IMG/VR virus record: IMGVR_UViG_2585427782_000001
Origin: a virus
Lineage: Duplodnaviria > Heunggongvirae > Uroviricota > Caudoviricetes
Length of the DNA stretch: 33,888 bases
Strand: one strand, 5' to 3'
How positions within the stretch are numbered: position 1 is the first letter of the stretch; each line of letters begins with the position of its first letter. The position numbers and the translations under genes are program-made. The notes beneath the pieces are model-generated. The model was not told where the DNA came from and made no database searches. It saw only the letters and a list, made by a program, of their open reading frames with translations. This document shows positions 6,867 through 31,837 of this stretch, one piece after another.

Positions 6867-6884
6867 TAACAGATTAATTTTTCA

Positions 6885-8720
6885 TTACCTGCCAAAGCGC
6901 GTATAGCCAACATCATGGCTGACATCAAAACCGCTGGATCGCGTTTCCATAACCCGCATACCCGGAGGCGAATTCACAAAAGAGACCTTGATCTCACCAT
7001 CAACTTTTGGCGCAGAAGCTTTGTTAATCATGAAGGGGTTCGGGCCTGTGACATCGGAGGCGTTGTTTGACTGAGCCGGATCCACCACCGGATAAGGTGT
7101 GTATCCCCGCGCCGGTATTCCCGTCCCATAAGCATCATAAGCACCCGCGCCCCACTGCGCAGAGTTAATGGCATCGACCGTGTCACCGGAACTGTCGGTA
7201 AACCACTCAATAATTGGCTTCAGCTTGTCCCACATATCCTGAAACCACTTAACAACCGGCCCCCAGTTATTGATCACCATCCCCAGCGGCGACCAGGCAA
7301 AAACTTTCTTAAGGAGTTCCCAGCCAGCCTCAAAATAAGGACCAATGGTTTCCCAGAGTTTCTTAAAATAAGGTCCGACAACATCCCAGTTAGTGATAAT
7401 TAATCCCGCAGCCAGGGCTATCGCCGTCGCAATCATGCCAATCGGCGTCATCGACATGATCCTGCTGACAATACTGATGGCACCGCCAACACCCATCAAT
7501 CCCAGTTTCAGAATCGCAAGACCGGCAGCAAGCCCAACGACGCCGCGAATAACCCGGGGATTTTCATCCGCAAACTTCGTGAATTTCTCCCCCAACTCCC
7601 CCAGCCATTGCGTGATATTTTTAGCGTCACCAGAAAATGCGCCGCCAATAGCCGCAAGGCCGTTAGTTGCGGTCCCCGTCATTGCCTCCCACAGGTTGGA
7701 CAGCGTACCAAGCTGGGCCTGAACACGTTTATTCAGGCTGGCCTGTTTATTCATCTTCTGCTGGATCTGATCGTAGCCATCCTTTCCTTTATCGATTAGT
7801 GCATTGACCACCTGAAGGGTTTCGGCATCATCACCAAATATTGCCTTAAGTACACCTGTTCGCTTAACGTCGGTCAGTTTTCGCAGCTTTGCCAGTTGCC
7901 TGAACATGTTATCAAGACCGCCAAAACTTCCTTTGCCGTCAGTAAAATCGAGCTGTACCCCGAGTTTCTGGCGGGCCATGATTTTATTGACGTCCCTGAT
8001 TTTCTTAACGCTTAATCCGGACTGGATAACTTTTCGCAGGGCGTTACCTGCCGACTCCCCGTTCATCCCCATCTGATCCATCATGACGCTGATGGGGGCA
8101 AGGCTCTGTGCAGCCTGAAGACCGTCCTTGTTCACCATCTTCAGAACAGAGCTGGTTTTAGTGAAGAAGGACAACATGTTGGTATCGTCAACACCCAGAT
8201 AAAACGCCTTCTGGATAGTGTCGAACAGCCCCATCATGTCTTCTGACGCCGTTCCGGTAGCATCCTGCATCTTTGCAGCAAACTCAGCAGCCGCTTCCGG
8301 TGTTTTTTTCAGTTGTACCGCAAGATAAGCTGTCGCTTTACCCACACCACCAAGAATGTTTTCTGCCGGGATCCCCTGACGCACCAGCATCTGCATCATG
8401 TTCTGGAAATCAGCCGTTGTACCGGGTAGCTGGTTACCCAGGCCAATAGCCAGTTTATTGATGTCCTGAAAGCTCTTTCCAACCTCGCCGTTCGCATCCA
8501 TCATGGCGACTTTCAGCCCGGTGGCGGCGTTTTCCTGATCGGCATAAGATTTCAGGGAAAGCGTCAGACCAGCTGCCAGTCCGCCACCAAGCGCCAGCCC
8601 ACCCTGTGACGCTTCTTCCGCCTGGCGTTTAAATCCCCGGATTTTCTTTTGCATTTTCGACAGCGCGGGAGAAAGTCTGTCGACACCGGTGATCAACGCC
8701 TTAAGCTCAAATTCAGCCAT
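6885..8720 (-). CDS. tail tape measure protein
   Basis: 611-aa ORF with Ala/Gly-rich and hydrophobic segments typical of tape measure proteins; sits between the chaperone and baseplate genes. Confidence 0.85.
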   Translation of the reverse strand: MAEFELKALITGVDRLSPALSKMQKKIRGFKRQAEEASQGGLALGGGLAAGLTLSLKSYADQENAATGLKVAMMDANGEVGKSFQDINKLAIGLGNQLPGTTADFQNMMQMLVRQGIPAENILGGVGKATAYLAVQLKKTPEAAAEFAAKMQDATGTASEDMMGLFDTIQKAFYLGVDDTNMLSFFTKTSSVLKMVNKDGLQAAQSLAPISVMMDQMGMNGESAGNALRKVIQSGLSVKKIRDVNKIMARQKLGVQLDFTDGKGSFGGLDNMFRQLAKLRKLTDVKRTGVLKAIFGDDAETLQVVNALIDKGKDGYDQIQQKMNKQASLNKRVQAQLGTLSNLWEAMTGTATNGLAAIGGAFSGDAKNITQWLGELGEKFTKFADENPRVIRGVVGLAAGLAILKLGLMGVGGAISIVSRIMSMTPIGMIATAIALAAGLIITNWDVVGPYFKKLWETIGPYFEAGWELLKKVFAWSPLGMVINNWGPVVKWFQDMWDKLKPIIEWFTDSSGDTVDAINSAQWGAGAYDAYGTGIPARGYTPYPVVDPAQSNNASDVTGPNPFMINKASAPKVDGEIKVSFVNSPPGMRVMETRSSGFDVSHDVGYTRFGR

Positions 8721-21547: not shown

Positions 21548-22237
21548 TTAATCCAGTTTTGCAATAGTTTGCTGTGAAAATGTCGTTTTTTGTTTTGAAC
21601 GTGTTTCCGTTAAAAGCAATAAAGCTTGGCTATCAAGCTGTAGAAAAATGTGCTTCATTGCAACCCAGCGTTCAGTAAATGTCTCAGACCAGTTTTTTGA
21701 TGTCACTCCCACCAGTGATGCCAGCTCCTGGTATTCATAGGTCTTACGCCCTGCCAGCTCGTTCTTCACATCCTGTGCCGCCAGCCAGATCAACTTCTTT
21801 AAGCGTTCCAGTGTCTTACTGGCAATTTTTCTTGTACCTAACAGAGCCTTAAACTCGTTCCATGCCCACTGCGTTATGGCAACCTGATGCTCCCAGCGAA
21901 TACTTTCGCTGTAACTCCACAGCAACCACGCTTTCTGGTGTTCTTCGAGAGACAGAACCGCGCGGCGCCATGAAGATGTTGAGAACTCAACCTGGCTGAC
22001 CAGTGCAATGGATGAACCTTTTGCGTACGACTGCTTACCGGAAATCGGCGGATTATCCAGCGTAATCATCCTGCCAGTTACCTCATCCAGAATGCGCGGC
22101 TTCTTTCGTTTGTATGTACCAGTATCAAATTGAGCATGCTCCAGCCAGGCTTCAAGCTGGCCTTTCGTTACTCCGCTCAAATCAGCGGTAGCCACCATGA
22201 GTTGCTCGCGAACATACTGTAAATATTGGATATTCAT
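21548..22237 (-). CDS. late-gene antiterminator Q-like protein (not lambda Q)
   Basis: 229-aa ORF in the Q position: downstream of ylcG/rusA and directly upstream of the late terminator and lysis cassette. Sequence is unlike lambda Q; assignment is mainly positional. Confidence 0.55.
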   Translation of the reverse strand: MNIQYLQYVREQLMVATADLSGVTKGQLEAWLEHAQFDTGTYKRKKPRILDEVTGRMITLDNPPISGKQSYAKGSSIALVSQVEFSTSSWRRAVLSLEEHQKAWLLWSYSESIRWEHQVAITQWAWNEFKALLGTRKIASKTLERLKKLIWLAAQDVKNELAGRKTYEYQELASLVGVTSKNWSETFTERWVAMKHIFLQLDSQALLLLTETRSKQKTTFSQQTIAKLD

Positions 22238-22374
22238 GCGGCAGCTCCTTTCAGTGTTTTGGCGTAATTCTTCAGTATTCGGTAATCGGTCAAAACAGAA
22301 CCGGGAAAACGATATAAGCGCAGGCGCACCCAGCGGCGGCGAAGACGTTCTGCCATATAAGACTCAAACATCAT
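22234..22374 (-). CDS. ylcG: YlcG-like small protein
   Basis: 46-aa [49 protein letters not shown], as recalled for DLP12 ylcG; ATGA overlaps with rusA stop and Q start. Confidence 0.7.
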
Positions 22375-22733
22375 TCATCTCCCAGTTCAGTGATGGTCAG
22401 CTCCAGCTTTCCACCTTTGGTAACGGGCATCTTCATAACGCGGTAATCAACGACCTGAGCATCATCCAGCCAGAAACCTGCTTTGGTGAGTGCGTCAAAA
22501 GCGGCCTTTTGTAGATTATCCAGGTCACGGCGACGGCGATCCGGCATGTGACACTCAATGCGGATTTTCACTGGCATAGCCAGGCCGATATCCAGCATTG
22601 CGTTTTTAATGATTTGAGCGACGTTATCGCGGTATGCCTGTCCCTCTGCGCTGACGTGCGTGCGCCCGCGATTATGGCGGTAATAGCGATTATTGCTCGG
22701 AGGCCAGGGTAATGTGATGCTGTAGGTATTCAC
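22371..22733 (-). CDS. rusA: Holliday junction resolvase RusA
   Basis: 120-aa product ([57 protein letters not shown]) matches the recalled RusA family. Confidence 0.9.
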
Positions 22734-23020
22734 GCCTTAATAACCCCCTCTTTCAGCCAGATAACCTGTGTTCTCGCCATACCTTCCAGCGCGCATTCTT
22801 TTGCATATCCAGCGTCAACAAAATGCGTGCGACGGTCGATCTCATCGTGACAGGCAGAACATGCAATGGTGGCAATCAGGTCTGGCGGTTTGGTACCGGT
22901 GCCACACAATCCAGCCAGCCGGATATGTGCCAGTACAGACGTTTCAGGGTTGCCATTACATATGCCAGGGATTCTTACCTGGCATTCCCGACCACGCGCT
23001 GCTTTTCTCAAATCAGCCAT
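22730..23020 (-). CDS. ybcO: YbcO-like putative nuclease (DUF1364-type, Cys-rich)
   Basis: [64 protein letters not shown].. matches recalled DLP12 YbcO; start set at the ATG overlapping the ninE stop. Confidence 0.85.
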
Positions 23021-23183
23021 GATTCCTCCTTGCTGCCAGTCGCAACCATTTTTTATCAACCAGGCTGGCGGTATACCCTAGCAGTGTTGGTATTTCGGAT
23101 GGCTTCAGCTCAGGTTTACGCTTACGACGATTTGGTACTCTGTAAATGTGCCCGTTCATGACACGAATAAGCGGTGTAGCCAT
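23013..23183 (-). CDS. ninE: NinE
   Basis: Hand translation gives [56 protein letters not shown], matching recalled lambda NinE; missing from the ORF track because it is under 60 aa. Confidence 0.85.
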   Translation of the reverse strand: MATPLIRVMNGHIYRVPNRRKRKPELKPSEIPTLLGYTASLVDKKWLRLAARRNHG

Positions 23184-23638
23184 TACGCCTCCTGCTTATC
23201 GCGCAGCAGCTGGAACTCGCAGCTCTGCGGAATAGTCAGGTGGCAGCCAATATTCATCGCCCAGGCTTCAACCTTACACAGGAAGACATACATCTCTCCG
23301 GTATCAAGATCGGAGGTATGGCGTAACGACTGGATAGTAGTGATTTCGCCGGTTACGACATCAACCAGGTCCTTGGTTTCATAACCGAGATATGTGTGTT
23401 TGAGAGCATCTTTTACCCAAGCTGGAGTGGCGAACGTTTTACCCCTGCTGATGAGGTATTCACTGATTTCGCTGTACCACATGTGGCTGAGTGCATTCTG
23501 GGAAAGACTGCGTCTCTCGCGCCACGGTTTAAGCACCATGCGAAAGCATTTGCCGTCCTCCAGATAAGGCTGGATCTGCTGGCCGATAGCAGTGAAGTTA
23601 CCGCGATGCAATTTGATACCTTCTTGTGGGAGGTTCAC
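23183..23638 (-). CDS. ybcN: YbcN-like protein (NinB-position, DNA base-flipping protein family)
   Basis: 151-aa product [62 protein letters not shown].. matches recalled DLP12 YbcN; GTG start. Confidence 0.85.
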
Positions 23639-23675
23639 GCTTCACCTCCGCAGAGGTCAAACGTTGGATGCAAAG

Positions 23676-23796
23676 AACCACAGGTGCATTTCTGCATCAG
23701 TGAAGGGAGAAGAGAGTTTGGATTGTATGTGCGCATAAACGTCCCCGTTTAGCGCAGAAGTCACCGGAGTTGTTCAGGCTCCGATGACATGATTAT
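23676..23796. repeat. direct repeat copy 1 (~120 bp), left boundary of the inserted module
   Basis: About 80-85 percent identical to 26062-26181 by eye, including an identical 18-mer caggtgcatttctgcatc and shared blocks gggagaaga, agtttggattgt, cataaac, ccccgttt, gtcacc, gttgttca, tgatgacatga. Confidence 0.8.
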
Positions 23797-23822
23797 GGCG
23801 GGTTGATTATTGAAAATCAAAG

Positions 23823-24500
23823 TTAATCGTACGAGTCGAGTATGTTCTGAAACGCCCAGCCATCCTCCTTAGGAACACAAGACAGAATCGAATGAATTAG
23901 ATCCCCTGCGGAAAGAAGTAACCCTTCTTGCCCTTCAAGAAAATAACGCCATTTAGGTCCATGAAACAGATTGTTCCGTAACCGGAAACAAACGAACAAG
24001 CACACTGCAAGCTGAGTCTCAGGCTCGGTTGTCATAGCTTGCATGGCTGAAAAATAGTCATCTCTCGCCTTTTGAGAGGTGTGGTGTAATTCCCCGCATA
24101 GGCTTTCAAACTTGCTTTTATCATTTACATAGCGTTCTGAAAAAAAATCGTATGTACACTTGAGAACCCCCAGATCCACAACCTCCATTTGCAAAAGACG
24201 ATTGGCATATTTCGCACTTTTGCCTTGCCCCCCAGCGCAATTAAGAAGTAGAGACTCGAAGAAAGAGAAGTACAAAAAATAACGATTAACGGCTGTAAGG
24301 ATAGATGGGGTAATCCTGCCTTCTGCATTAATCAACTCGTCAAATTCTGATGAAAAATCCAACTGTTCATCCTTTTCCATTATATTCGGCCATTTATTGA
24401 TATTGCACATCAGTCGCTCTTGGCAATGACAGGTTTGCTCTCGGTAATGTCTCAAACGCCCCAAAAAGTAGTCTCGCAAATGCTCTAGTTGCTCGCGCAT
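23823..24500 (-). CDS. hypothetical protein with HEPN-like R-x4-H motif (candidate RNase / abortive-infection effector)
   Basis: 225-aa ORF in an AT-rich insert; contains ..CFRLRNNLFHGPKW.. (RNxxxHG-type motif); no RBS at the annotated start, so the true start may be internal (M31 or M41). Confidence 0.35.
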   Translation of the reverse strand: MREQLEHLRDYFLGRLRHYREQTCHCQERLMCNINKWPNIMEKDEQLDFSSEFDELINAEGRITPSILTAVNRYFLYFSFFESLLLNCAGGQGKSAKYANRLLQMEVVDLGVLKCTYDFFSERYVNDKSKFESLCGELHHTSQKARDDYFSAMQAMTTEPETQLAVCLFVCFRLRNNLFHGPKWRYFLEGQEGLLLSAGDLIHSILSCVPKEDGWAFQNILDSYD

Positions 24501-24626
24501 AACAACTTCGGCGATAACCGGCTATTCGGTCGTTCTTTATACGCTACGCTTGAAGGCGCAAGGCCAACGCTTACCTTGTCACGTTCCTATTGCGGTTTTG
24601 CTGCAATGTTCCTGTCAGTCTGACAT

Positions 24627-24652
24627 AAAAAACCCCTCAATCATCTGAGGGG
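24627..24652 (-). terminator. intrinsic terminator after the 66-aa ORF
   Basis: Minus-strand RNA CCCCUCA-gaugau-UGAGGGG followed by UUUUUU. Confidence 0.55.
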
Positions 24653-24660
24653 ATTAGACA

Positions 24661-24861
24661 TCATTGCTTCCAATACTTTTGAACCCGGATATTCATTGGC
24701 ACACAAACATTTTCATAGATAGGGCCGCTAACAGTCATGACTATATAAATACCATCAAGACCATCAATATTAAGCGAGAGTCTATCTCCGGCTCTAACCT
24801 CACGCTCTAGTTCAATATCTTCTACTCGTCCAGTATCATCGAAAGTCACTGAATACATCAT
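24661..24861 (-). CDS. small hypothetical protein
   Basis: 66-aa ORF between the Bro-N gene and the terminator; no recognised family. Confidence 0.3.
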   Translation of the reverse strand: MMYSVTFDDTGRVEDIELEREVRAGDRLSLNIDGLDGIYIVMTVSGPIYENVCVPMNIRVQKYWKQ

Positions 24862-25023
24862 TTCAAATTTCCATCTAAGTGCATGAGGTGTCTAACGAAA
24901 ATACCATAAAGAGAATTTGATTACATTGAACTTTTTCAGTGCTTACTTGGCTTATCTGAAGCCTTAATCATTGCCGCCCAGTGCGCTACCTGCTTGCATC
25001 CATTCAGCGCCTAATATGTAAAA

Positions 25024-25632
25024 CTATTGCAATCTAGCCTGACGCAAATGTGGCAATACCCTGCTCCACTTATTATCCTGCCAAGGCTGGAATTTTACAT
25101 GTGCCGTTTTTCTGGCAAGGATTTCGCGCGCCTTATGTAGTATCTGGGGATATTCTTGCTCGATAGAAGTAAAGCGACCGGCTTCGCGGTGTTCCGCAAC
25201 CTGAAGAAGTGGAGTAACGTTCTGGCAGGCGGTTAACATCGTATCACTTGCTCGCCATAACCAAGCAAGTGTGCAAAGTTCGTTATCAGTGAATTGTTTT
25301 GTGATCGGGGATTGTTGAACTTCTCGATCGAGAATATCCAGAACCCAGCGGCGGAACTCTTTGGCTACAGGAGTTCGTGCAAACATTGCGATCAAATGGG
25401 CTCCGCGAAGGCTAAATACTCGAGACTCCTGCATTCCACGAGGGGTGGTCACTTTGACCACCCTTGTCATCATATCTGTAAATTCATCTGAGTGACGAGA
25501 GTAAATGCGCTGAACTGCTTTATCGTCCGCATATTCCAGAGCTAAACCAACTTCAGTGGCAGTAAGCCAAATTCTGTTATTGTGGCAAATTGGGGTAAAC
25601 GTCGTTTTGTGGAATGCTAATTGAGTAGTCAT
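25024..25632 (-). CDS. Bro-N domain protein (antirepressor-like)
   Basis: N-terminus ..LAFHKTTFTPICHNNRIWLTATEVGLALEYADDKAVQRI.. fits the recalled Bro-N pattern (F..F....IR...G..WF.A.DVA..LGY); RBS GAGGTGA upstream of the ATG. Confidence 0.55.
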   Translation of the reverse strand: MTTQLAFHKTTFTPICHNNRIWLTATEVGLALEYADDKAVQRIYSRHSDEFTDMMTRVVKVTTPRGMQESRVFSLRGAHLIAMFARTPVAKEFRRWVLDILDREVQQSPITKQFTDNELCTLAWLWRASDTMLTACQNVTPLLQVAEHREAGRFTSIEQEYPQILHKAREILARKTAHVKFQPWQDNKWSRVLPHLRQARLQ

Positions 25633-25788
25633 AGTATCACCTCATCAGGTTAACCATCACCACCAACGACGCCAATCGACTGGTGGTGAACTGTGCAAGG
25701 TTGGCGTAACCGGCTACTCAAACCCGGCGCTCCCGAAGAAGCCCTCACACAGCCCACCATAATTTGGGCGTAGCCGTGCTTAGCGCAT

Positions 25789-25809
25789 AAAAAAACCGCT
25801 TAACGCGGT
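25789..25809 (-). terminator. intrinsic terminator between the promoter-like element and the Bro-N gene
   Basis: Minus-strand RNA ACCGC-guuaa-GCGGU followed by UUUUUUU. Confidence 0.5.
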
Positions 25810-25869
25810 ATGCGTTGAGTAGTATTCCGGGACGCCAATCCCGTGTGCCGATTTTGCGGCAACGCACAG

Positions 25870-25899
25870 AATATAGCGCCGGATAAATAATGTCGTCAA
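25870..25899 (-). promoter_or_regulatory. sigma70-like promoter candidate (TTGACG-18-TATATT)
   Basis: Minus strand -35 TTGACG (plus 25894-25899), 18-nt spacer, -10 TATATT (plus 25870-25875); predicted transcript would reach the 25789-25809 terminator after about 75 nt. Confidence 0.35.
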
Positions 25900-26061
25900 C
25901 CCTTGCAAATGGGTGGCGCGATGATCACTACTACCACTATAACCGCTCCAACTGTTGCAACTACTTTAGGCCAAGACATCAAGATCTCCATATCACCTTT
26001 AGCTGCGAAACGAACAGAGGTTCCCATCTCTATACTGCCGAGGCCAAACACCGAATATAAA

Positions 26062-26181
26062 AACCGCAGGTGCATTTCTGCATCTATGACGGGAGAAGAT
26101 AGTTTGGATTGTGTGGGCTCATAAACTCCCCGTTTGGTGCAGTAGTCACCGTAGTTGTTCATATTCTGATGACATGATAAT
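26062..26181. repeat. direct repeat copy 2 (~120 bp), right boundary of the inserted module
   Basis: See copy 1 at 23676-23796. Confidence 0.8.
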
Positions 26182-26381
26182 TTCCTATTGAATAGAAAAA
26201 ATTAACACTACTCATTCTTATGACTGGAAAAAGCAATCATGCTAATAATCATTGTTGTTCCAGTTCCAAATGCAGCGAAATAATCACTAATATTTTTTTT
26301 CTACCGGTTTCGACTTTGATGCTATATTCTGCCAACACCTAACTAACACTACGTTTCACACAGCAATTACATGGAAATAAC

Positions 26382-26729
26382 ATGACTATCAAAGCGACTG
26401 ACATAGAGATTCTTCATCGTTATGCTGAAGGGGTAATGGAACGTTCTAACCATCATGCAAAAAATGTTGGTGCAGCCGCTCTTACATTGCTAGGAGGTGT
26501 TATCTGGAAAGCCCTGCCCGGCTCAATCGAGATAAGAACTTATAACGGAAGTCTTGCAAATATGGTATGGTGGAAAAGCGAAAGTACATTAAAAAATTAT
26601 GCAATATCATACAACCATGATTCATGTGAAATTGAAATGAGAGATGGATCAGTCAAAGGTGCTGTTTTGTTTAGCATTTCCAACAAAACTACTCCAGAAA
26701 AAATATTATCACAGCTTTCTGAACTTTAA
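26382..26729 (+). CDS. hypothetical protein on the opposite strand in an AT-rich island
   Basis: 115-aa ORF convergent with P; a GC-rich hairpin (26735-26752) lies just after its stop; no recognised family. Confidence 0.4.
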   Translation: MTIKATDIEILHRYAEGVMERSNHHAKNVGAAALTLLGGVIWKALPGSIEIRTYNGSLANMVWWKSESTLKNYAISYNHDSCEIEMRDGSVKGAVLFSISNKTTPEKILSQLSEL

Positions 26730-26934
26730 TTAAAGGCGGTGCTAACACCGCCCCATACCATTACTCCACATCTTACGCAACTTGATAATTATGCTCTATT
26801 AAATACCCACAATATTTCATCAATGCATGGGCCAGCTACAAAATATTTACCGTGGTTATTCCTGTTTTCGCAACATCTCAAAAGAACAATAAACACTGTA
26901 TTTCTTCAAGTAACGAAGAATCTTTCTTTGCCTG

Positions 26935-27636
26935 TCATACACTGGCTCCTTTCAGTCCGAACTTAGCTTTGATTTCTGCGATCTTCGCCAGAGACTGAAC
27001 ACGATTAAGCGGTCTCCCGCCCATAACAGGAAGCTGTTTTACTGGTTCAGGTATCACCTCACCACGGTTAATTCGCGCGGTCATACAGGACAGTTCATCG
27101 GCAGCCTTGCGCCGTAATTCCGCATCAGTAAGCGCATTGGCCCGCATGTTCTGGTACAGGTTGGTAACCAGCCAGTAGTGCGCGTTTGATTTCCATGGAT
27201 AAGACTCTGCGTCCGGATACAGGCCTCGCTTCCGGCAATACTCGTAAACCATATCAACCAGCTCGCTGACGTTTGGCAGTCCGGCGATAACGGATGCTTC
27301 TTCCCGGCACCATGCAACAAACTGCCCGGGTGATGGCAGGAATGGTCGATTCTGCCGACGGGCTACGCGCATTCCTGCGTTAACCTGTTCCATTGTGGTG
27401 ATCTCGTTTTCCCGGAAAGCCAGAACCCACTGGCGGCGGATTTCGTTCAGTTCGTTCTGATCCCGGTTAGCCAGGCTCGCAGGGAAAGTTGCCAGTAACT
27501 GGCTGAACACACCGTTGATGATCTGCGCTACCTGCTGTACCTGCGGCTTTTCGTCGTACTGTTCCGGCATATTGTTGGCGAGCCGGCGCATCTGCTCACG
27601 GTCAAAGTTAACCATCTGTGCGGCGATGTTTTTCAT
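26935..27636 (-). CDS. P: replication protein P (DnaB helicase loader)
   Basis: 233-aa product near-identical to recalled lambda P (MKNIAAQMVNFDREQMRR.ANNMPEQYDEKPQVQQVAQIINGVFSQLLATFPASLANRDQNE..). Confidence 0.95.
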   Translation of the reverse strand: MKNIAAQMVNFDREQMRRLANNMPEQYDEKPQVQQVAQIINGVFSQLLATFPASLANRDQNELNEIRRQWVLAFRENEITTMEQVNAGMRVARRQNRPFLPSPGQFVAWCREEASVIAGLPNVSELVDMVYEYCRKRGLYPDAESYPWKSNAHYWLVTNLYQNMRANALTDAELRRKAADELSCMTARINRGEVIPEPVKQLPVMGGRPLNRVQSLAKIAEIKAKFGLKGASV

Positions 27637-28562
27637 AAATCCACCCCGTAAATCCAGTCAGTGTTCGTCAGGTCGAGTTTTGGTTTGCCGGCTGTCACGC
27701 CAGCCTGTTGCTTGTTTCGGTTGATTTCGAGCTGGGTCCACTTGTCGCGGAGTTTGGCCGGACTCAGCACGTTACCGGACCAGAAGTTGTCCTGGCATGC
27801 CCAGCGGAACAGCACGCACATGTCGCGGTGGTTACGTCCGTCACGTTCACGCATCAGGCGGATATCGTTAGCCCACCCTGCAAAATTCGGTTTTCTGGCT
27901 GATGGCGCGATGGTCTTCACCATGTCAAACATCCACTCTGCGGCGGTCAGGTCTTCTGCTGTCCCCCACCTGCTGCCGCTCTGAATTGCAGCATCTGGTT
28001 TCTCCACAGGAAGATCGTTTTCTGGTTGGTCAGAGGATTCGCCAGAATTCTCGGACGAAAAAGGTTTTATATTGTCTTTTGTTAGTTTGTCTTTTGTGTT
28101 TACCTGATTCGGGTAAGTGCCTTTACCTGATTTGGGTAAACTTTTCTTACCTGATTCAGGTAAATTTACCTCTTTCAGGTAAACTTTATTTTTCTTACCT
28201 GATTCGGGTAATGTTGACCATTCACTGACCACATTATTAATGCCGATATTCCGCCCGCTCTGAATAAAAATCCCACGCTTTACCAGAACACTTTTTGCAG
28301 CAGAACACTTGTGCGGCAATATCCCGGTCAACTCGGAAAGTTGCTCGTTGCTCACCCAATCCAGTTTTTTATTAAAGCCATATGTTTTGCGCATGACAGC
28401 CAGGAAGACCAGAAGCTGGTGCTGTGTTAATCCGGCCAGCATCACAGCTTCCAGCAACTCATTTGCAATGCGCGTATAACCATCATCGAGATCTGCCACA
28501 CGCGGCTCCTTTTGTGCCGCATCCGGCACTGGAAAATTGAATATCTCAGCAGTGTTTGCCAT
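27633..28562 (-). CDS. O: replication initiator O (iteron-binding)
   Basis: Start chosen at MANTAEIFNFP with GGGAGG 5-6 nt upstream; the N-terminal region ..ADLDDGYTRIANELLEA..LTQHQLLVFLAVMRKTYGFNK resembles lambda O; ori iterons lie inside the gene. The ORF track's 28652 start is an upstream in-frame codon. Confidence 0.85.
   Translation of the reverse strand: MANTAEIFNFPVPDAAQKEPRVADLDDGYTRIANELLEAVMLAGLTQHQLLVFLAVMRKTYGFNKKLDWVSNEQLSELTGILPHKCSAAKSVLVKRGIFIQSGRNIGINNVVSEWSTLPESGKKNKVYLKEVNLPESGKKSLPKSGKGTYPNQVNTKDKLTKDNIKPFSSENSGESSDQPENDLPVEKPDAAIQSGSRWGTAEDLTAAEWMFDMVKTIAPSARKPNFAGWANDIRLMRERDGRNHRDMCVLFRWACQDNFWSGNVLSPAKLRDKWTQLEINRNKQQAGVTAGKPKLDLTNTDWIYGVDL
28100..28212. repeat. origin of replication: five iterons inside the O gene, with adjacent AT-rich tract
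   Basis: ttacctgattcgggtaa (28100), ttacctgatttgggtaa (28123), ttacctgattcaggtaa (28147), ttacctctttcaggtaa (28166), ttacctgattcgggtaa (28196); each is internally palindromic (TTACC..GGTAA). AT-rich tract at about 28058-28099. Confidence 0.75.
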
Positions 28563-28648
28563 AATTCCTCCCGCAATGAGTGTGTTACGATTTGCACCTG
28601 AAAGTCGGTTCTGTTCCCGCAGACCGACTTTCGCCATTTCTGAACCTG

Positions 28649-29188
28649 TCATATTGCCCCCAGCATGGTGGTCACCATCGCCATTAATGGACCAGCCAGA
28701 TCCGGGTCCACACGAAACATCGACACAATACCTTCACTCATTTCCTTCAGTTTCTGGTGGCGTGGTGCGTTGAGAATGACAGCCTGTTTTGCCTCACTGA
28801 GTTCCTTTTCCATTTCAGCCAACCGAGTCATGAAGCTATCCTGCTCAACCAGGTAACCGCGATATTCCAGCGGTAGTACCGCCAGAATTGCCGGGGTCAG
28901 TTCACGCACGTTATTTCGGTATTTTTCAGAATCGAATTTGTTATCGAGGAAGCGGAACAGCTTCTGGCGTGCACGGCTGACATCATCAGGGAAATCGATG
29001 GTGCCGTCGCCCTGCTCCCGATACTCATTCACAATGAGTGCGGCAACGACATCCTGATTATCTACAGCCGACCAGGCGCGGACGGCATCACGGATTTTTT
29101 CGTGGCCTGGCACCTGTTTTGTTTGAGAACGATTTATCACCGCAGTCGGGCTAAATCCGCTAGTCTGTTGGTATGTAAGTGGTTGCAT
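28649..29188 (-). CDS. YdaT-like protein at the cII position
   Basis: 179-aa ORF between cro and O with RBS AAAGGAG; segment ..LTPAILAVLPLEYRGYL.. resembles my recollection of Rac YdaT; not lambda cII. Confidence 0.45.
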   Translation of the reverse strand: MQPLTYQQTSGFSPTAVINRSQTKQVPGHEKIRDAVRAWSAVDNQDVVAALIVNEYREQGDGTIDFPDDVSRARQKLFRFLDNKFDSEKYRNNVRELTPAILAVLPLEYRGYLVEQDSFMTRLAEMEKELSEAKQAVILNAPRHQKLKEMSEGIVSMFRVDPDLAGPLMAMVTTMLGAI

Positions 29189-29257: not shown

Positions 29258-29488
29258 TTAAGCTGCGTTCTTTTCGGTGTGTGGAAACAACTTCGGAAGA
29301 TCCGGGCGAATCTGGTATGCCTTCACTACTCCACCAGTAGCCGTAACAATGCTGCCGACATGTTCAGGGGATACCTTTGCTTTGTTGTGAAGCCACTTAT
29401 AGACGGCCTGCTGTGAAACTTCGCAAGCAGCGCCCAGTTTCTTTTGTGAACCAACGATATTGATCGCTGTTTTGATAGCTGGGTTCAT
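29258..29488 (-). CDS. Cro-like repressor (small HTH protein)
   Basis: 76-aa ORF divergent from cI with GGAGG RBS; ..QKKLGAACEVSQQAVYKW.. is helix-turn-helix-like. Confidence 0.65.
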   Translation of the reverse strand: MNPAIKTAINIVGSQKKLGAACEVSQQAVYKWLHNKAKVSPEHVGSIVTATGGVVKAYQIRPDLPKLFPHTEKNAA

Positions 29489-29592
29489 AACAACCTCCGT
29501 GGTTAATTTGAATCAAAATTAAAACTATGGTTGTTTTTAGTCAACAACTATTTTCGTTTGATGGAATAAAACCTTGGTTGTACATTTGGACT
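29489..29592. promoter_or_regulatory. divergent pR / pRM-like promoter and operator region
   Basis: Minus strand: TTGACT-17-TAATTT then GGAGG and the cro ATG. Plus strand: TTGATG-17-TACATT ending 6 nt before the cI ATG (leaderless-like). Palindromes ttaatttgaatcaaaattaa (29503-29522) and GTTGTT-N7-AACAAC (29530-29548). Confidence 0.55.
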
Positions 29593-30282
29593 ATGAAAAC
29601 AACACTCTCAGAAAGACTTAAAGAAGCCAGATTAGCGCGAGGCCTTACACAAAAGGCGCTTGGGGATTTGGTCGGGGTTAGCCAGGCTGCTATTCAGAAA
29701 ATCGAAACAGGGAAAGCTAATCAAACAACTAAAATCGTGGAGATCGCGAACGCTTTGGGTGTGCGCGCAGAATGGTTATCTTCTGGCGTTGGAAATATGT
29801 CAGACAGTACAGTGCAACCAATACAATCAACTGTCAGCCATTCCAAATACTTTAAGATTGACGTTCTTGATATAGAAGTGAGTGCCGGGCCGGGAGTCAT
29901 CAACCGTGAGTTTGTAGAAGTTCTACGCTCGGTTGAGTACTCGTTTGACGATGCTCGTCACATGTTCGATGGTAGGAAGGCAGAAAATATCCGCATCATT
30001 AACGTACGCGGTGACAGCATGTCAGGAACGATCGAACCAGGTGACCTTTTGTTCGTTGATATCACTGTTAAATCTTTCGACGGTGATGGTATCTATGCGT
30101 TTCTGTACGACGACACAGCCCATGTAAAGCGCCTGCAAATGATGAAGGATAAGCTGCTCGTTATCTCTGATAACAAGAGTTACTCACCGTGGGACCCGAT
30201 CGAGAAAGACGAGATGAACCGGGTATTCATTTTCGGGAAAGTCATCGGGAGCATGCCGCAGACGTACAGGAAGCATGGGTAA
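29593..30282 (+). CDS. CI-type repressor (HTH plus LexA-like S24 peptidase domain)
   Basis: MKTTLSERLKEARLARGLTQKALGDLVGVSQAAIQKIETGK (HTH) and ..VRGDSMSGTIEPGDLLFVD..HVKRL.. (Ser/Lys dyad region); start set at the internal ATG at 29593. Confidence 0.9.
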   Translation: MKTTLSERLKEARLARGLTQKALGDLVGVSQAAIQKIETGKANQTTKIVEIANALGVRAEWLSSGVGNMSDSTVQPIQSTVSHSKYFKIDVLDIEVSAGPGVINREFVEVLRSVEYSFDDARHMFDGRKAENIRIINVRGDSMSGTIEPGDLLFVDITVKSFDGDGIYAFLYDDTAHVKRLQMMKDKLLVISDNKSYSPWDPIEKDEMNRVFIFGKVIGSMPQTYRKHG

Positions 30283-30330: not shown

Positions 30331-30747
30331 ATGCAACATAATATTCATAGTGATTATTTCAAGTGGTGGTGCGGAACAGTAATCATTGGAGCAATCCCTA
30401 TCTTTATTAGATTTATTGCTTATTTCATCACTAATAAAAACATAGAGCTGATCAATATAACTGAGTTGATATGTTTTGGCTTTGCCATACAAATATCCAG
30501 TATTTATTACGGAATGGGCCAACCCAGCAAGCAAACTGAAAACAATATTATTATAAACACTACCATATCGATTGTTTTCATTGTACTTTTTTCTATAATT
30601 TACATTATTGTTATGCTGGCTGATAACATCCTTAACATGAATACGACTCGCATATTAGTCGCTATTACTTGTGGTATATCCTTATACATTGGACAAAATT
30701 CAGTCAGGTGTGCTATTATCAATAACAAAGTAGTGGCGCAGGAGTAA
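30331..30747 (+). CDS. multi-helix membrane protein in the rexAB position (candidate exclusion/defence component)
   Basis: 138-aa ORF with 3-4 hydrophobic stretches (WWCGTVIIGAIPIFIRFIAYFI, ELICFGFAIQISSIYYGM, IIINTTISIVFIVLFSIIYIIVMLA, TRILVAITCGISLYIG); visibly AT-rich; directly downstream of cI on the same strand. Confidence 0.5.
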   Translation: MQHNIHSDYFKWWCGTVIIGAIPIFIRFIAYFITNKNIELINITELICFGFAIQISSIYYGMGQPSKQTENNIIINTTISIVFIVLFSIIYIIVMLADNILNMNTTRILVAITCGISLYIGQNSVRCAIINNKVVAQE

Positions 30748-30750
30748 ATT

Positions 30751-30927
30751 ATGGAGTACTTAATTACTATTTTATCCATAATAGCTGTTGTGATACCTGC
30801 TGTATTGGCATGGTTTTCAAGAAAAAACCTCAAAAATGCACAGGAAACTTTAATGCACATAGAAAGGGTCAGAAAGTCAAATAGCGATGACTTTGAAAGA
30901 AAGAAAGAACAACTTAAATATCACTAA
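30751..30927 (+). CDS. small single-helix protein (58 aa), translationally coupled
   Basis: GGAG overlaps the stop of the upstream gene, 6 nt before the ATG; MEYLITILSIIAVVIPAVLAWFSRKNLKNAQETLMHIERVRKSNSDDFERKKEQLKYH; below the ORF-track size cutoff. Confidence 0.35.
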   Translation: MEYLITILSIIAVVIPAVLAWFSRKNLKNAQETLMHIERVRKSNSDDFERKKEQLKYH

Positions 30928-30937
30928 TGGAATTGGT

Positions 30938-31837
30938 ATGCAGTTAAAAAATATCATTTATATTGATTATGAGAAGGTCTACTCTTTAAGCTCTCAATTA
31001 TTTGAGGGCGTAATTCAATCCGCGATGGAGCATAAAGAGTCTACTCTTTCAAATATAGATGCAGTCGAAATAAAGACAAAAAGTAGTTCAAGTAAAACGA
31101 GTGACACAAAAAAAATATCAACAGTGTTAAACCCTCATGATTATCATTATCTGAAATTTGAAAACGAACTTAGCAAAAGAGGAATTCTGTCTAACATAAC
31201 TTCCCCGATCGACTCGAACAAAATTAAGGCTAATTGCTTTGTTAAAATCACCTGCCCAATTCAATTTAATGACTATAATAAATTAAAAAATACCGCTAAG
31301 AATTTCTGTAAAACTAACTATGCTATTAATTTCGTTCATCGAAATGACGAATTAGAAAGTCTAGAATCGATGCTGAAATCGATAAAACCCAAATCCAATG
31401 AATTTAATATTATCAAGGCAAGACAAGCAGAAATTAAAAGTGAGCTTGATAATTTAACATCTCCAAATCAGAAAAAATTCTTTGAGCATTTGTCTTCTGT
31501 TTTAGATTACGCATATGGTGACGAAATAGAAATATCACAAAAAATGCAAGATATTAAATTCACCTCATTCTTAATCAGAGATTTTCTTAAAATCAGTCCA
31601 GAAATGTTTGTAAAGTTATATTCTCGTCGAACGACCTCTGCATTCACAGTCGTAGGGATGATAACGCGTACATCAACGTCTGAAGGTAATCAGGAATCAG
31701 AGGCTCGTGAACTAAACGGCATTCGCAGTGCAGTCTGGAATATGAATGACAGCCTTTTTGATCTGGAGTCAACATTTTGCGCCCCTGACTCTGATGAGTA
31801 TTTCATTGAGCCTATTGCTGTTTACAATGAGCTATAA
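30938..31837 (+). CDS. hypothetical soluble protein (~300 aa), third gene of the cI-downstream operon
   Basis: AT-rich, Lys/Asn/Ser-rich ORF with no nucleotide-binding or nuclease motif recognisable by eye; start could instead be the ATG at 30887 (316 aa); followed by a terminator. Confidence 0.5.
   Translation: MQLKNIIYIDYEKVYSLSSQLFEGVIQSAMEHKESTLSNIDAVEIKTKSSSSKTSDTKKISTVLNPHDYHYLKFENELSKRGILSNITSPIDSNKIKANCFVKITCPIQFNDYNKLKNTAKNFCKTNYAINFVHRNDELESLESMLKSIKPKSNEFNIIKARQAEIKSELDNLTSPNQKKFFEHLSSVLDYAYGDEIEISQKMQDIKFTSFLIRDFLKISPEMFVKLYSRRTTSAFTVVGMITRTSTSEGNQESEARELNGIRSAVWNMNDSLFDLESTFCAPDSDEYFIEPIAVYNEL

Follow-up and report, generated by a model that had tools for sequence, protein, structure and literature searches.

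The subject of this report is the interval between P and ybcN in IMGVR_UViG_2585427782_000001, a prophage of the phage-82/DLP12-like lambdoid type whose early-right operon lies on the minus strand; the whole stretch of DNA analysed, 33,888 nt, is referred to below as the window. The gap between P and ybcN measures 3.3 kb and is mostly taken up by an interval flanked by two direct repeats, which a first-pass annotation of the sequence had described as a single AT-rich cargo module inserted between P and the nin genes. As a whole, the best explanation, which we consider very probable, is that the repeats are two copies of a portable promoter-plus-leader unit of ~180 bp (the ylcH/nin leader) and not merely an insertion scar. 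The cargo is not one module and is only moderately AT-rich (GC 0.452 in the interval and 0.425 between 23821 and 25023, the window as a whole being at 0.511); it is a composite, made up of an open reading frame (ORF) for a 59-aa membrane protein, then an IsrK/C4 antirepressor module, then a variable slot. From P to ybcN, the locus holds the following features:

26935-27636: P.
26382-26729, plus strand: gene of the Vch_cass14 family ('integron cassette protein'), between P and leader copy 2 and outside the repeats.
26037-26206, minus strand: leader copy 2, degenerate.
25896-26075, minus strand: 59-aa small membrane-protein ORF (phrog_4612), with its AUG inside leader copy 2 and its stop in the -35 of PisrK.
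25870-25899, minus strand: predicted PisrK promoter, TTGACG-18-TATATT (consensus scan, 10/12).
25789-25861, minus strand: IsrK RNA, the a1b1 target element (Rfam RF01394, 60.7 bits, gathering score 50).
25795-25809, minus strand: IsrK's own terminator (terminator scan).
25679-25764, minus strand: C4-type antisense RNA (Rfam RF01695, 72.7 bits, gathering score 45, full length 1-87).
25670-25676, minus strand: AUUGGCG target site, in a hairpin ahead of the ant ribosome-binding site.
25024-25632, minus strand: antirepressor of 202 aa, AnrP/Ant-like (Bro-N 4.2e-10 and P22_AR_C 9.9e-17).
24661-24861, minus strand: 66-aa ORF (phrog_38858; PHROG match 1.1e-50).
24633-24652, minus strand: intrinsic terminator-like hairpin after the 66-aa ORF (8-bp stem, five GC pairs, TTTTTT tail).
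24431-24626, minus strand: DNA polymerase III theta (HolE/P1 Hot-like) pseudogene, its 3' part fused in frame to the RNxxxH ORF.
23823-24380, minus strand: RNxxxH (HEPN-like) protein, 185 aa from Met41 of a 225-aa ORF (195 aa if started at Met31, 24410).
23639-23820, minus strand: leader copy 1 (ylcH/nin leader), intact, directly upstream of ybcN; delimited by the repeat alignment, its 5' boundary and a breakpoint.
23183-23638, minus strand: ybcN.

Local alignment of the two repeats (23640-23860 against 26025-26245) gave 120 identities over 147 columns (81.6%), with two 1-bp indels and a score of 155, compared with 16.8 +/- 2.4 (maximum 28) for shuffled repeat sequences (n=200), a difference that rules out a chance origin. 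A search for ungapped blocks returned 23673-23745/26059-26131 at 85% and 23742-23820/26127-26205 at 76%, which places the repeat extents at ~23650-23820 and ~26037-26205, somewhat longer than initially drawn. The 18-mer CAGGTGCATTTCTGCATC is identical in both copies, as had been claimed; the bracketing of the cargo by direct repeats was likewise borne out, and the ORF coordinates, the terminator, the CFRLRNNLFHG motif and the Bro-N protein are all as first described. Of 5426 complete E. coli genomes, 4190 contain sequences resembling the repeat, and the same element stands upstream of ybcN or ninB in about 100 unique phage and prophage copies, in agreement with the earlier proposal that copy 1 is the native upstream region of ybcN.

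For the analysis of the leader, 139 instances (115 unique) were gathered from complete E. coli genomes, annotated phages and IMG/VR contigs. The intact copy 1 contains, in the direction of ybcN:

23803-23820, minus strand: palindrome TTGATT-N6-AATCAA, one half of which is the -35 hexamer.
23792-23820, minus strand: putative sigma-70-like promoter, TTGATT-17-CATAAT (consensus scan, 9/12).
23760-23788, minus strand: hairpin P1 (stem of 10 bp, conserved 9-nt loop CCUGAACAA), at the predicted transcript 5' end.
23730-23756, minus strand: hairpin P2, whose GGGA loop is the ylcH Shine-Dalgarno (SD) sequence and whose 3' arm contains the ylcH AUG.
23635-23736, minus strand: ylcH/orf33 upstream ORF (uORF), 33 codons, its stop overlapping the ybcN start (GTGA).
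23667-23698, minus strand: hairpin P3, which holds the invariant 18-mer (minimum free energy (MFE) fold).
23637-23664, minus strand: hairpin P4, inside the 3' end of ylcH, which sequesters the ybcN SD GGAGG (MFE fold).

The 5' edge of the leader is abrupt, falling at TTGATT in 89 non-redundant copies, and the sequence upstream of it is unrelated from phage to phage. Correspondingly, the positions of the palindrome and hexamers are conserved at 0.87-1.0 among 107 copies, and the bases further upstream are random. Part of this element had already been marked in 1996 in the phage 82 record X92588, which shows a putative -35/-10, a 'possible regulator-binding site' at the position of P1, the ribosome-binding site of orf33 and an inverted repeat. 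The uORF is orf33 of phage 82 and ylcH of DLP12, and is an annotated coding sequence in relatives. An ORF of 31-33 codons is kept in 99 of the 108 unique leaders evaluated, in three sequence types that differ in length; it starts with AUG or GUG, and its stop sits on the start of the next gene (ATGA or GTGA), which encodes any of at least five different proteins, ybcN-type and ninB-type among them. A search of 23500-27000 against Rfam 15 at E<=1 returned only C4, isrK and c4-a1b1, with no match for the leader. Pairing of C4 or IsrK with the leader gave duplex energies no better than shuffled (z of +0.3 to +0.8), and in the same comparison the C4-IsrK duplex reached a z of about -2. Nothing on the leader or on the function of ylcH was found in the searchable literature on ylcH and ybcN, which excludes most subscription journals; a search with literal sequences likewise returned no paper, and a preprint on phage hot spots does not extend to lambdoid phages. 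Matches to the palindrome with up to two mismatches number six in the window, both leaders included, against 1.9 expected, which may be chance; one of them, the two-mismatch match GTGGTTAATTTGAATCAA at 29499-29516 between cI and cro, is weak and not convincing.

Copy 2 is a degenerate version of this unit. Its hexamers are weakened to GTTAAT and AATTAT, its P1 is down to 6 bp (-4.0 kcal/mol), its P2 is also weakened and its ylcH is cut to 12 codons (26084-26122). Similarity between the copies stops in the 5' half of P3, where the 59-aa membrane ORF begins, and a terminator-like hairpin with a U-run is retained at 26065-26082 on the minus strand. Copy 2 is intact in other phages, specifically at the related loci L124, L035 and L009 (L numbers denote the loci compared). 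Leaders of the copy-2 type are 90% identical between the window and enterohemorrhagic E. coli (EHEC)-type prophages, whereas copies 1 and 2 within the window are 82% identical, which indicates that the duplication is old and not a fresh insertion scar. Copy 2 would thus be a decayed paralog heading a second unit, with copy 1 heading ybcN. Two leader copies are also found in an IMG/VR phage (L105), at 6817 and 10921, 4.1 kb apart, with no isrK/C4 between them and with a 271-aa gene headed by the second copy; duplication of the leader is hence not confined to loci with the antirepressor module.

When the window was compared with each of eight relatives, homology was seen to break off at five places: at the stop of P (26925-26935), at the 5' edge of leader 2 (26161-26214), at the 3' end of ant (25025-25042), within theta (24457) and at the 5' edge of leader 1 (23820-23822). 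The last of these is a breakpoint in six of the six relatives compared whose adjacent cargo differs. The comparison with cargo-less prophages that the first-pass annotation had proposed was made by searching a synthetic 'deleted' junction against the 5,426 complete E. coli genomes, and it identified two, NJS001 and STEC799, in which the query is covered 100% in one piece. Both have the order O - P - Vch_cass14 - one leader - ybcN, i.e., the Vch_cass14 gene is retained, and their single leader is chimeric, with copy-1 bases at the ybcN side and copy-2 bases at the promoter side and beyond. The switch falls within a stretch of ~50 nt that is identical between the copies, as would result from homologous recombination between the repeats. 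These genomes show that recombination between leader copies can delete the intervening cargo, and the chimera leaves either arrangement free to have come first. The original suggestion of an insertion by recombination at a conserved boundary is thus in line with the breakpoints and the chimeric empty site; the part of it that does not stand is the reading of the duplication as a mere footprint, as the repeat is a functional-looking unit and the duplication is old. Since nearly all phages of this type share the leader, it could act as a homology 'handle' for the exchange of cargo.

The view of the nin region as a site for accessory cargo is supported by the sibling prophages, which carry at least six alternative cargos at this site, including PD-lambda-1, HEPN proteins, lipoproteins, a colicin with its immunity protein, emrE/ybcLM and an esterase. 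In the slot between ant and leader 1 specifically, the following alternatives were found:

L003, L004, L117, L124 and L035: a PF05168 HEPN protein and a 133-aa protein.
L008: theta and an unrelated 210-aa protein, also with an RNKYAH motif (2250-2882).
L009: a 169-aa protein.
L130-L134 and L036: an intact or unannotated theta and an RNxxxH protein of 68% identity.

The PF05168 HEPN protein of this slot matches the PADLOC candidate-defence model PDC-M28A (1.8e-7), and a 472-aa HEC-07-like protein (PADLOC, 1.1e-9) is encoded elsewhere in the P-to-nin region of sibling prophages. Candidates for defence or competition in this region of the siblings include PD-lambda-1 as well as a colicin-pore protein with its immunity gene; the coordinates of the candidates named here include L130 673-2091, L009 4400-5902 and L135 1781-3478. 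DLP12 of K-12 carries emrE-ybcK-ybcL-ybcM at the same P-to-nin site. One of only three genomes with the full arrangement of the window has an IS4-like IS421 inserted within the region (NZ_CP104681.1 3818570-3823814).

The core of the cargo is, by homology, the already described IsrK/C4-antirepressor system of the P1-immI/Gifsy-1 type, whose two RNAs the first-pass annotation had missed. The 202-aa protein matches the PHROG 'anti-repressor Ant' at 1.1e-54, and isrK, C4 and ant occur together in nine of nine related E. coli loci with two leaders. A c4-a1b1 match (RF03163) overlaps IsrK at 40.6 bits, below its gathering score of 46.7. The sequence AUUGGCG occurs twice, in the IsrK loop and between C4 and the ribosome-binding site of ant, and both occurrences are complementary to CGCCAA (25701-25706) of C4. 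By analogy, the C4 RNA would block ant expression, IsrK/a1b1 would serve as competitor or activator, and Ant would inactivate a prophage repressor. In Gifsy-1, a short form of IsrK switches on translation of the isrK-orf45-anrP transcript and the orf45' RNA, once processed, resembles C4, and the system has been likened to the seqA and CI RNA of phage P4 (PMC4825925, Hershko-Shalev et al. 2016). The present module shares with Gifsy-1 IsrK-orf45-AnrP, with P1/P7 immI (c4-icd-ant) and with the N15 anti-immunity system the series of promoter, IsrK/a1b1 with its terminator, C4 and a Bro-N/P22_AR_C antirepressor, as well as the repeated AUUGGCG target complementary to C4. The comparison with P1 immI draws on the Rfam C4 and a1b1 families and not on the Gifsy-1 paper. 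Unlike in Gifsy-1 and P1, the module lies here between P and the nin genes, behind a leader copy and the 59-aa membrane ORF. A point against equating the systems is that no orf45/icd-like upstream ORF is recognisable ahead of ant: an ATGA overlap is present where ant starts, yet the frame upstream stays open for just six codons, in contrast to Gifsy-1 and P1. In a Klebsiella prophage (L135), matches to Rfam isrJ (63 bits) and STnc100 (82 bits) were found downstream of Q at 6872-7247; there, the RNxxxH gene is present and isrK/C4 is absent.

The ORF between leader 2 and PisrK was called mechanically as 88 aa (25896-26162). However, its phrog_4612 match (1.1e-14) covers residues 30-81 only, and the protein probably consists of the 59 aa that start at 26075. 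It gives a weak match to DUF4752 (7.4e-4) and has a hydrophobic helix at its C-terminus. In every ant-carrying locus compared, tblastn matches to it (38-100% identity, some of them partial) lie between leader 2 and isrK.

Among the E. coli loci compared, the 66-aa ORF downstream of ant was found only in the company of both ant and theta; the Klebsiella loci with a retained RNxxxH gene lack it. The 225-aa ORF that follows (23823-24500; WP_024238538) had been taken for one gene, but theta models from Pfam, PHROG and NCBIfam match its residues 1-23. Judged by these matches, it is the tail of a theta pseudogene fused to the RNxxxH gene, the first 23 codons being a theta remnant that the first-pass annotation missed. 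Relative to the intact gene of L130, 4 nt are inserted after codon 3 of the pseudogene, which also carries a nonsense codon and additional indels. In line with this boundary, homologs of the RNxxxH protein measure 183-203 aa, with their first residue corresponding to Met41. Theta is frameshifted or a remnant both here and in Klebsiella L135-L137, and it is not called as a gene in L131-L133, while the RNxxxH gene is intact throughout. In other E. coli and Klebsiella prophages, an intact theta precedes the RNxxxH gene, with a 14-nt overlap in L138.

The RNxxxH protein belongs to a large family. A profile search of 1.84 billion cluster representatives returned 549 members at E<=0.001, most of them stand-alone proteins of 160-180 aa from Proteobacteria and other phyla. 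Across 57 members with 18-61% identity, E52, R93, R145, N147, H150, G151 and K153 are invariant, the motif being YRLRNNLFHGxKW. The RNNLFH of this motif, which appears as CFRLRNNLFHG in the 225-aa ORF, fits the Rx4-6H pattern of HEPN domains, typically R-N-x-x-x-H, and an AlphaFold2 model (pLDDT 84.9, pTM 0.81) is made up of nine helices without any strand. The gene is always immediately upstream of the leader and ybcN in E. coli and Klebsiella, usually after theta. Its 72 distant loci have no conserved neighbour (the commonest occurs in seven); among the genes nearby are those for a TIR protein of the CAP12 type, a further HEPN protein, integrases and a relaxase. As listed above, this slot is occupied in sibling prophages by other HEPN or RNxxxH proteins. 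The same R-N-x-x-x-H-G motif in a small all-alpha protein is found in the HEPN RNases, i.e., MNT-HEPN toxins, Abi proteins, the RiboL-PSP/DUF4145 HEPN group and the Tha protein of S. aureus prophages (PMC11087260), with which the prophage or defence-island context and, for some Abi/Tha proteins, the single-gene organisation are also shared.

Motif and genomic context thus point to a single-gene, HEPN-like exclusion or abortive-infection function, in which the protein would act as a dimeric HEPN-type RNase; this is our best guess, offered tentatively and as somewhat short of an even chance. The closest rival is that it is not a HEPN RNase at all, its motif being convergent in a helical protein that serves otherwise, for example as a regulator or as an anti-defence factor in lytic growth, which we regard as somewhat unlikely. 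This rival is favoured by several null results. Foldseek of the model against the PDB and BFVD returned nothing at E<=0.001, and searches of PDB sequences with narrow and broad profiles of the family gave only chance matches. With hhalign, neither the 30-member PF05168 HEPN family built from the sibling-slot protein nor the 210-aa RNxxxH protein and a RiboL-PSP-like neighbour aligned significantly with the family, and for the latter two the motif region alone was aligned. No model for the family was found in Pfam, NCBIfam or PADLOC. Weighing further against HEPN membership, the motif sits in the model at the C-terminal end of a helix; in classical HEPN domains it lies at the start of helix 4. 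The earlier assignment of the 225-aa protein to the HEPN type is therefore matched by the invariant motif and the all-alpha model but by no significant structure or profile similarity, which makes the protein a candidate HEPN member. The companion idea of a recognised defence module fared less well: among the cargo proteins, only Ant, Vch_cass14 and the theta remnant were matched by Pfam, NCBIfam or PADLOC models, and a search of five cargo proteins against PADLOC-DB 2.0 gave no match at E<=0.1.

Turning to the leader, its architecture suggests a promoter joined to a translational gate. As a cis-regulatory family, it would consist of a palindrome-controlled promoter, a 5' hairpin and a two-step gate (P2 - ylcH uORF - P4), in which an opened P2 would allow ylcH to be translated, and this translation would melt P4 and let the first nin gene be translated in turn. 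Such a gate would control the nin genes, perhaps with read-through to Q, in phages of the phage-82/DLP12 type. Covariation was evaluated on a gap-free, loop-anchored alignment, as plain MAFFT misaligned the variants, so that RNAalifold mis-paired P2. Across the leaders, P1 has a stem of 10-12 bp and the loop YYUGAACAM; all 48 sequence variants fold, and double changes occur at nine of its ten pairs, many of them involving G-U. P2 is built from four different stem sequences, with double changes at six of six inner pairs and 99.6% of cells paired. Taken together over 45 distinct sequences, P1 and P2 have 92.5% of cells paired compared with 66.8% when shuffled, a value reached by none of 500 shuffles, and show double changes at 15 of 16 pairs; sliding the partner by 1-3 columns lowers pairing to at most 45%. 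The frequent G-U pairs of P1 and P2 fit an RNA structure of the gene-sense strand better than they fit a palindrome in DNA. In P4, the SD of the downstream gene is paired in 97 of 103 unique leaders, by three different stem sequences, and P3 is almost invariant and hence lends no covariation support. Several points weigh against this reading: kinship among the leader sequences inflates the comparison with shuffles (92.5% against 66.8%); the anchoring of the P2 loop picked the best-pairing GGGA, a small bias in the 99.6%; the IMG/VR copies were gathered by the exact 18-mer, so that the P3 region is conserved in part by construction; the promoter, the start of transcription and the view of the hairpins as RNA are predictions from sequence; and the degenerate copy 2 may have no leader function in this window.

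The same hairpins could instead act at the level of DNA, as operator palindromes or sites for recombination or replication proteins, in which case ylcH would be spurious and the element a joint or a terminator similar to lambda tR2. The TTGATT-N6-AATCAA palindrome is a feature of the DNA type, the near-invariant 18-mer suggests a sequence-specific site, tR2 lies in lambda at exactly the leader position, copy 2 has retained its terminator-like hairpin and U-run, and the searchable literature holds nothing on a function of ylcH. However, G-U pairs are common in P1 (e.g., U-G 21 times at one pair) and would be A-C mismatches on the other DNA strand, the ORF and its stop/start overlap persist over three sequence types of different length and at least five downstream genes, and the SD-sequestering P4 has been rebuilt with three different stems. 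A purely DNA-level role is thus improbable. The wider proposal, in which the ylcH/nin leader is an undescribed cis-regulatory family as well as a homology handle for cargo and the RNxxxH protein founds a new family of single-gene, HEPN-type defence, is a joint one and is put forward tentatively, at rather less than even likelihood.

The cargo had also been suggested to contain a defence or toxin module, i.e., an operon for a toxin-antitoxin pair or a two-gene defence system in which the 225-aa HEPN protein would be the toxin and the 66-aa protein the antitoxin; theta is another candidate for the antitoxin. The RNxxxHG motif is invariant, HEPN toxins usually come with small partners, and in several prophages of E. 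coli and Klebsiella a theta gene lies immediately before the HEPN-like gene or overlaps it. Nevertheless, the 66-aa ORF is set apart from the HEPN-like gene by a strong terminator (24652-24633) and by ~130 nt of theta pseudogene, and this ORF and the HEPN-like gene do not co-occur in Klebsiella, where loci keeping the HEPN-like gene are devoid of the 66-aa ORF. Theta is decayed here and in Klebsiella L135-L137 next to an intact HEPN-like gene, which is unlike the behaviour of an essential antitoxin; the commonest neighbour in the 72 distant loci is present in only seven of them, and PADLOC gave no match to the cargo proteins. In place of the conserved, co-transcribed adjacent partner of a type II toxin-antitoxin system, the relatives show a partner that varies or is absent. 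The pairing of the RNxxxH protein with an antitoxin is therefore quite unlikely.

Least probable is that the repeats are target duplications or att-like sites left by a site-specific mobile element (a transposon, integron-like cassette or satellite), as direct repeats around lower-GC DNA and an adjoining gene of the Vch_cass14 'integron cassette' family might suggest: at ~150-180 bp and 18% divergence, the repeats are far longer and more diverged than target duplications, the interval has no transposase or recombinase gene among its ORFs and carries no inverted repeats at its ends, homology with relatives breaks off at several distinct internal points, copy 2 has a widespread lineage of its own, the crossover in the single-leader genomes lies inside a stretch identical in both copies, as homologous recombination expects, and the Vch_cass14 gene is outside the repeats and kept in the empty-site genomes.

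Overall, the locus is a case of ordinary lambdoid mosaicism at the well-known variable region from P/ren to nin, combined with a described antirepressor system. Lambdoid mosaicism is reportedly covered by the modular theory of Susskind and Botstein, by Juhala et al. in 2000 and by Hendrix's morons. As at other mosaic boundaries and moron hot spots, conserved sequence stands beside highly variable cargo, and a conserved flank, unrelated alternative cargos and flank recombinants were all found here. Unlike at the usual boundaries, the boundary is itself a structured unit of promoter, leader and uORF that is present twice and for which a cargo-less recombinant is demonstrable. Like the leader, the tR2 of lambda, between ren and ninB, is immediately upstream of the ribosome-binding site of the first nin gene. 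In contrast to the leader, the lambda spacer (J02459 40570-40644) is 74 bp long and has one strong intrinsic terminator, with no promoter, no uORF and no sequence similarity to the leader; the leader hairpin with its U-tract (copy 2, 26082-26065) may be a weak counterpart of tR2. Leaders of the erm type are likewise uORF-coupled and sequester a ribosome-binding site by means of a leader peptide. The ylcH leader also resembles isrK-orf45-anrP, in which a short uORF ends on the start of the regulated gene (A/GUGA) and the SD is buried in a hairpin inside the uORF (PMC4825925).

As far as the literature searched here goes, what is new is that the boundary is a structured promoter/uORF leader with strong covariation, that there is direct evidence for leader-leader recombination, and that the large RNxxxH family is uncharacterised. 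The two-copy leader and the documented cargo-less recombinant provide a concrete, sequence-level example of how accessory cargo is swapped in lambdoid prophages, and the leader may gate the expression of recombination genes and possibly of Q. Several annotations can also be corrected: IsrK and C4 would control the Bro-N antirepressor, WP_024238538 is a pseudogene-gene fusion, and for the 33-aa YlcH a leader peptide is the most fitting reading. The RNxxxH protein is widespread and shares its slot with other HEPN-domain and RNxxxH proteins.

The remaining genes of the early region and its surroundings are the following:

21548-22237: Q, of the phage-82 type, followed by the lysis genes.
22371-22733: rusA.
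22730-23059: ybcO.
23013-23183: ninE.
27633-28652: O.
28649-29188: gene for a YdaT-domain protein.
29258-29488: cro-like gene.
29527-30282, plus strand: S24-family repressor.

The Vch_cass14-family gene had also gone unnoticed in the first-pass annotation, and the stretch that contains it, 26206-26934, is the most AT-rich part of the region (GC 0.369). The position that rexAB has in lambda, immediately downstream of the cI-like repressor, is taken by a gene for a 138-aa multi-pass membrane protein (30331-30747, plus strand), and after it one for a 316-aa DUF6414 protein (30887-31837, plus strand; Pfam 1.1e-17, with a PADLOC AbiEi match of only 0.008). These two proteins could be an exclusion pair expressed in the lysogen.

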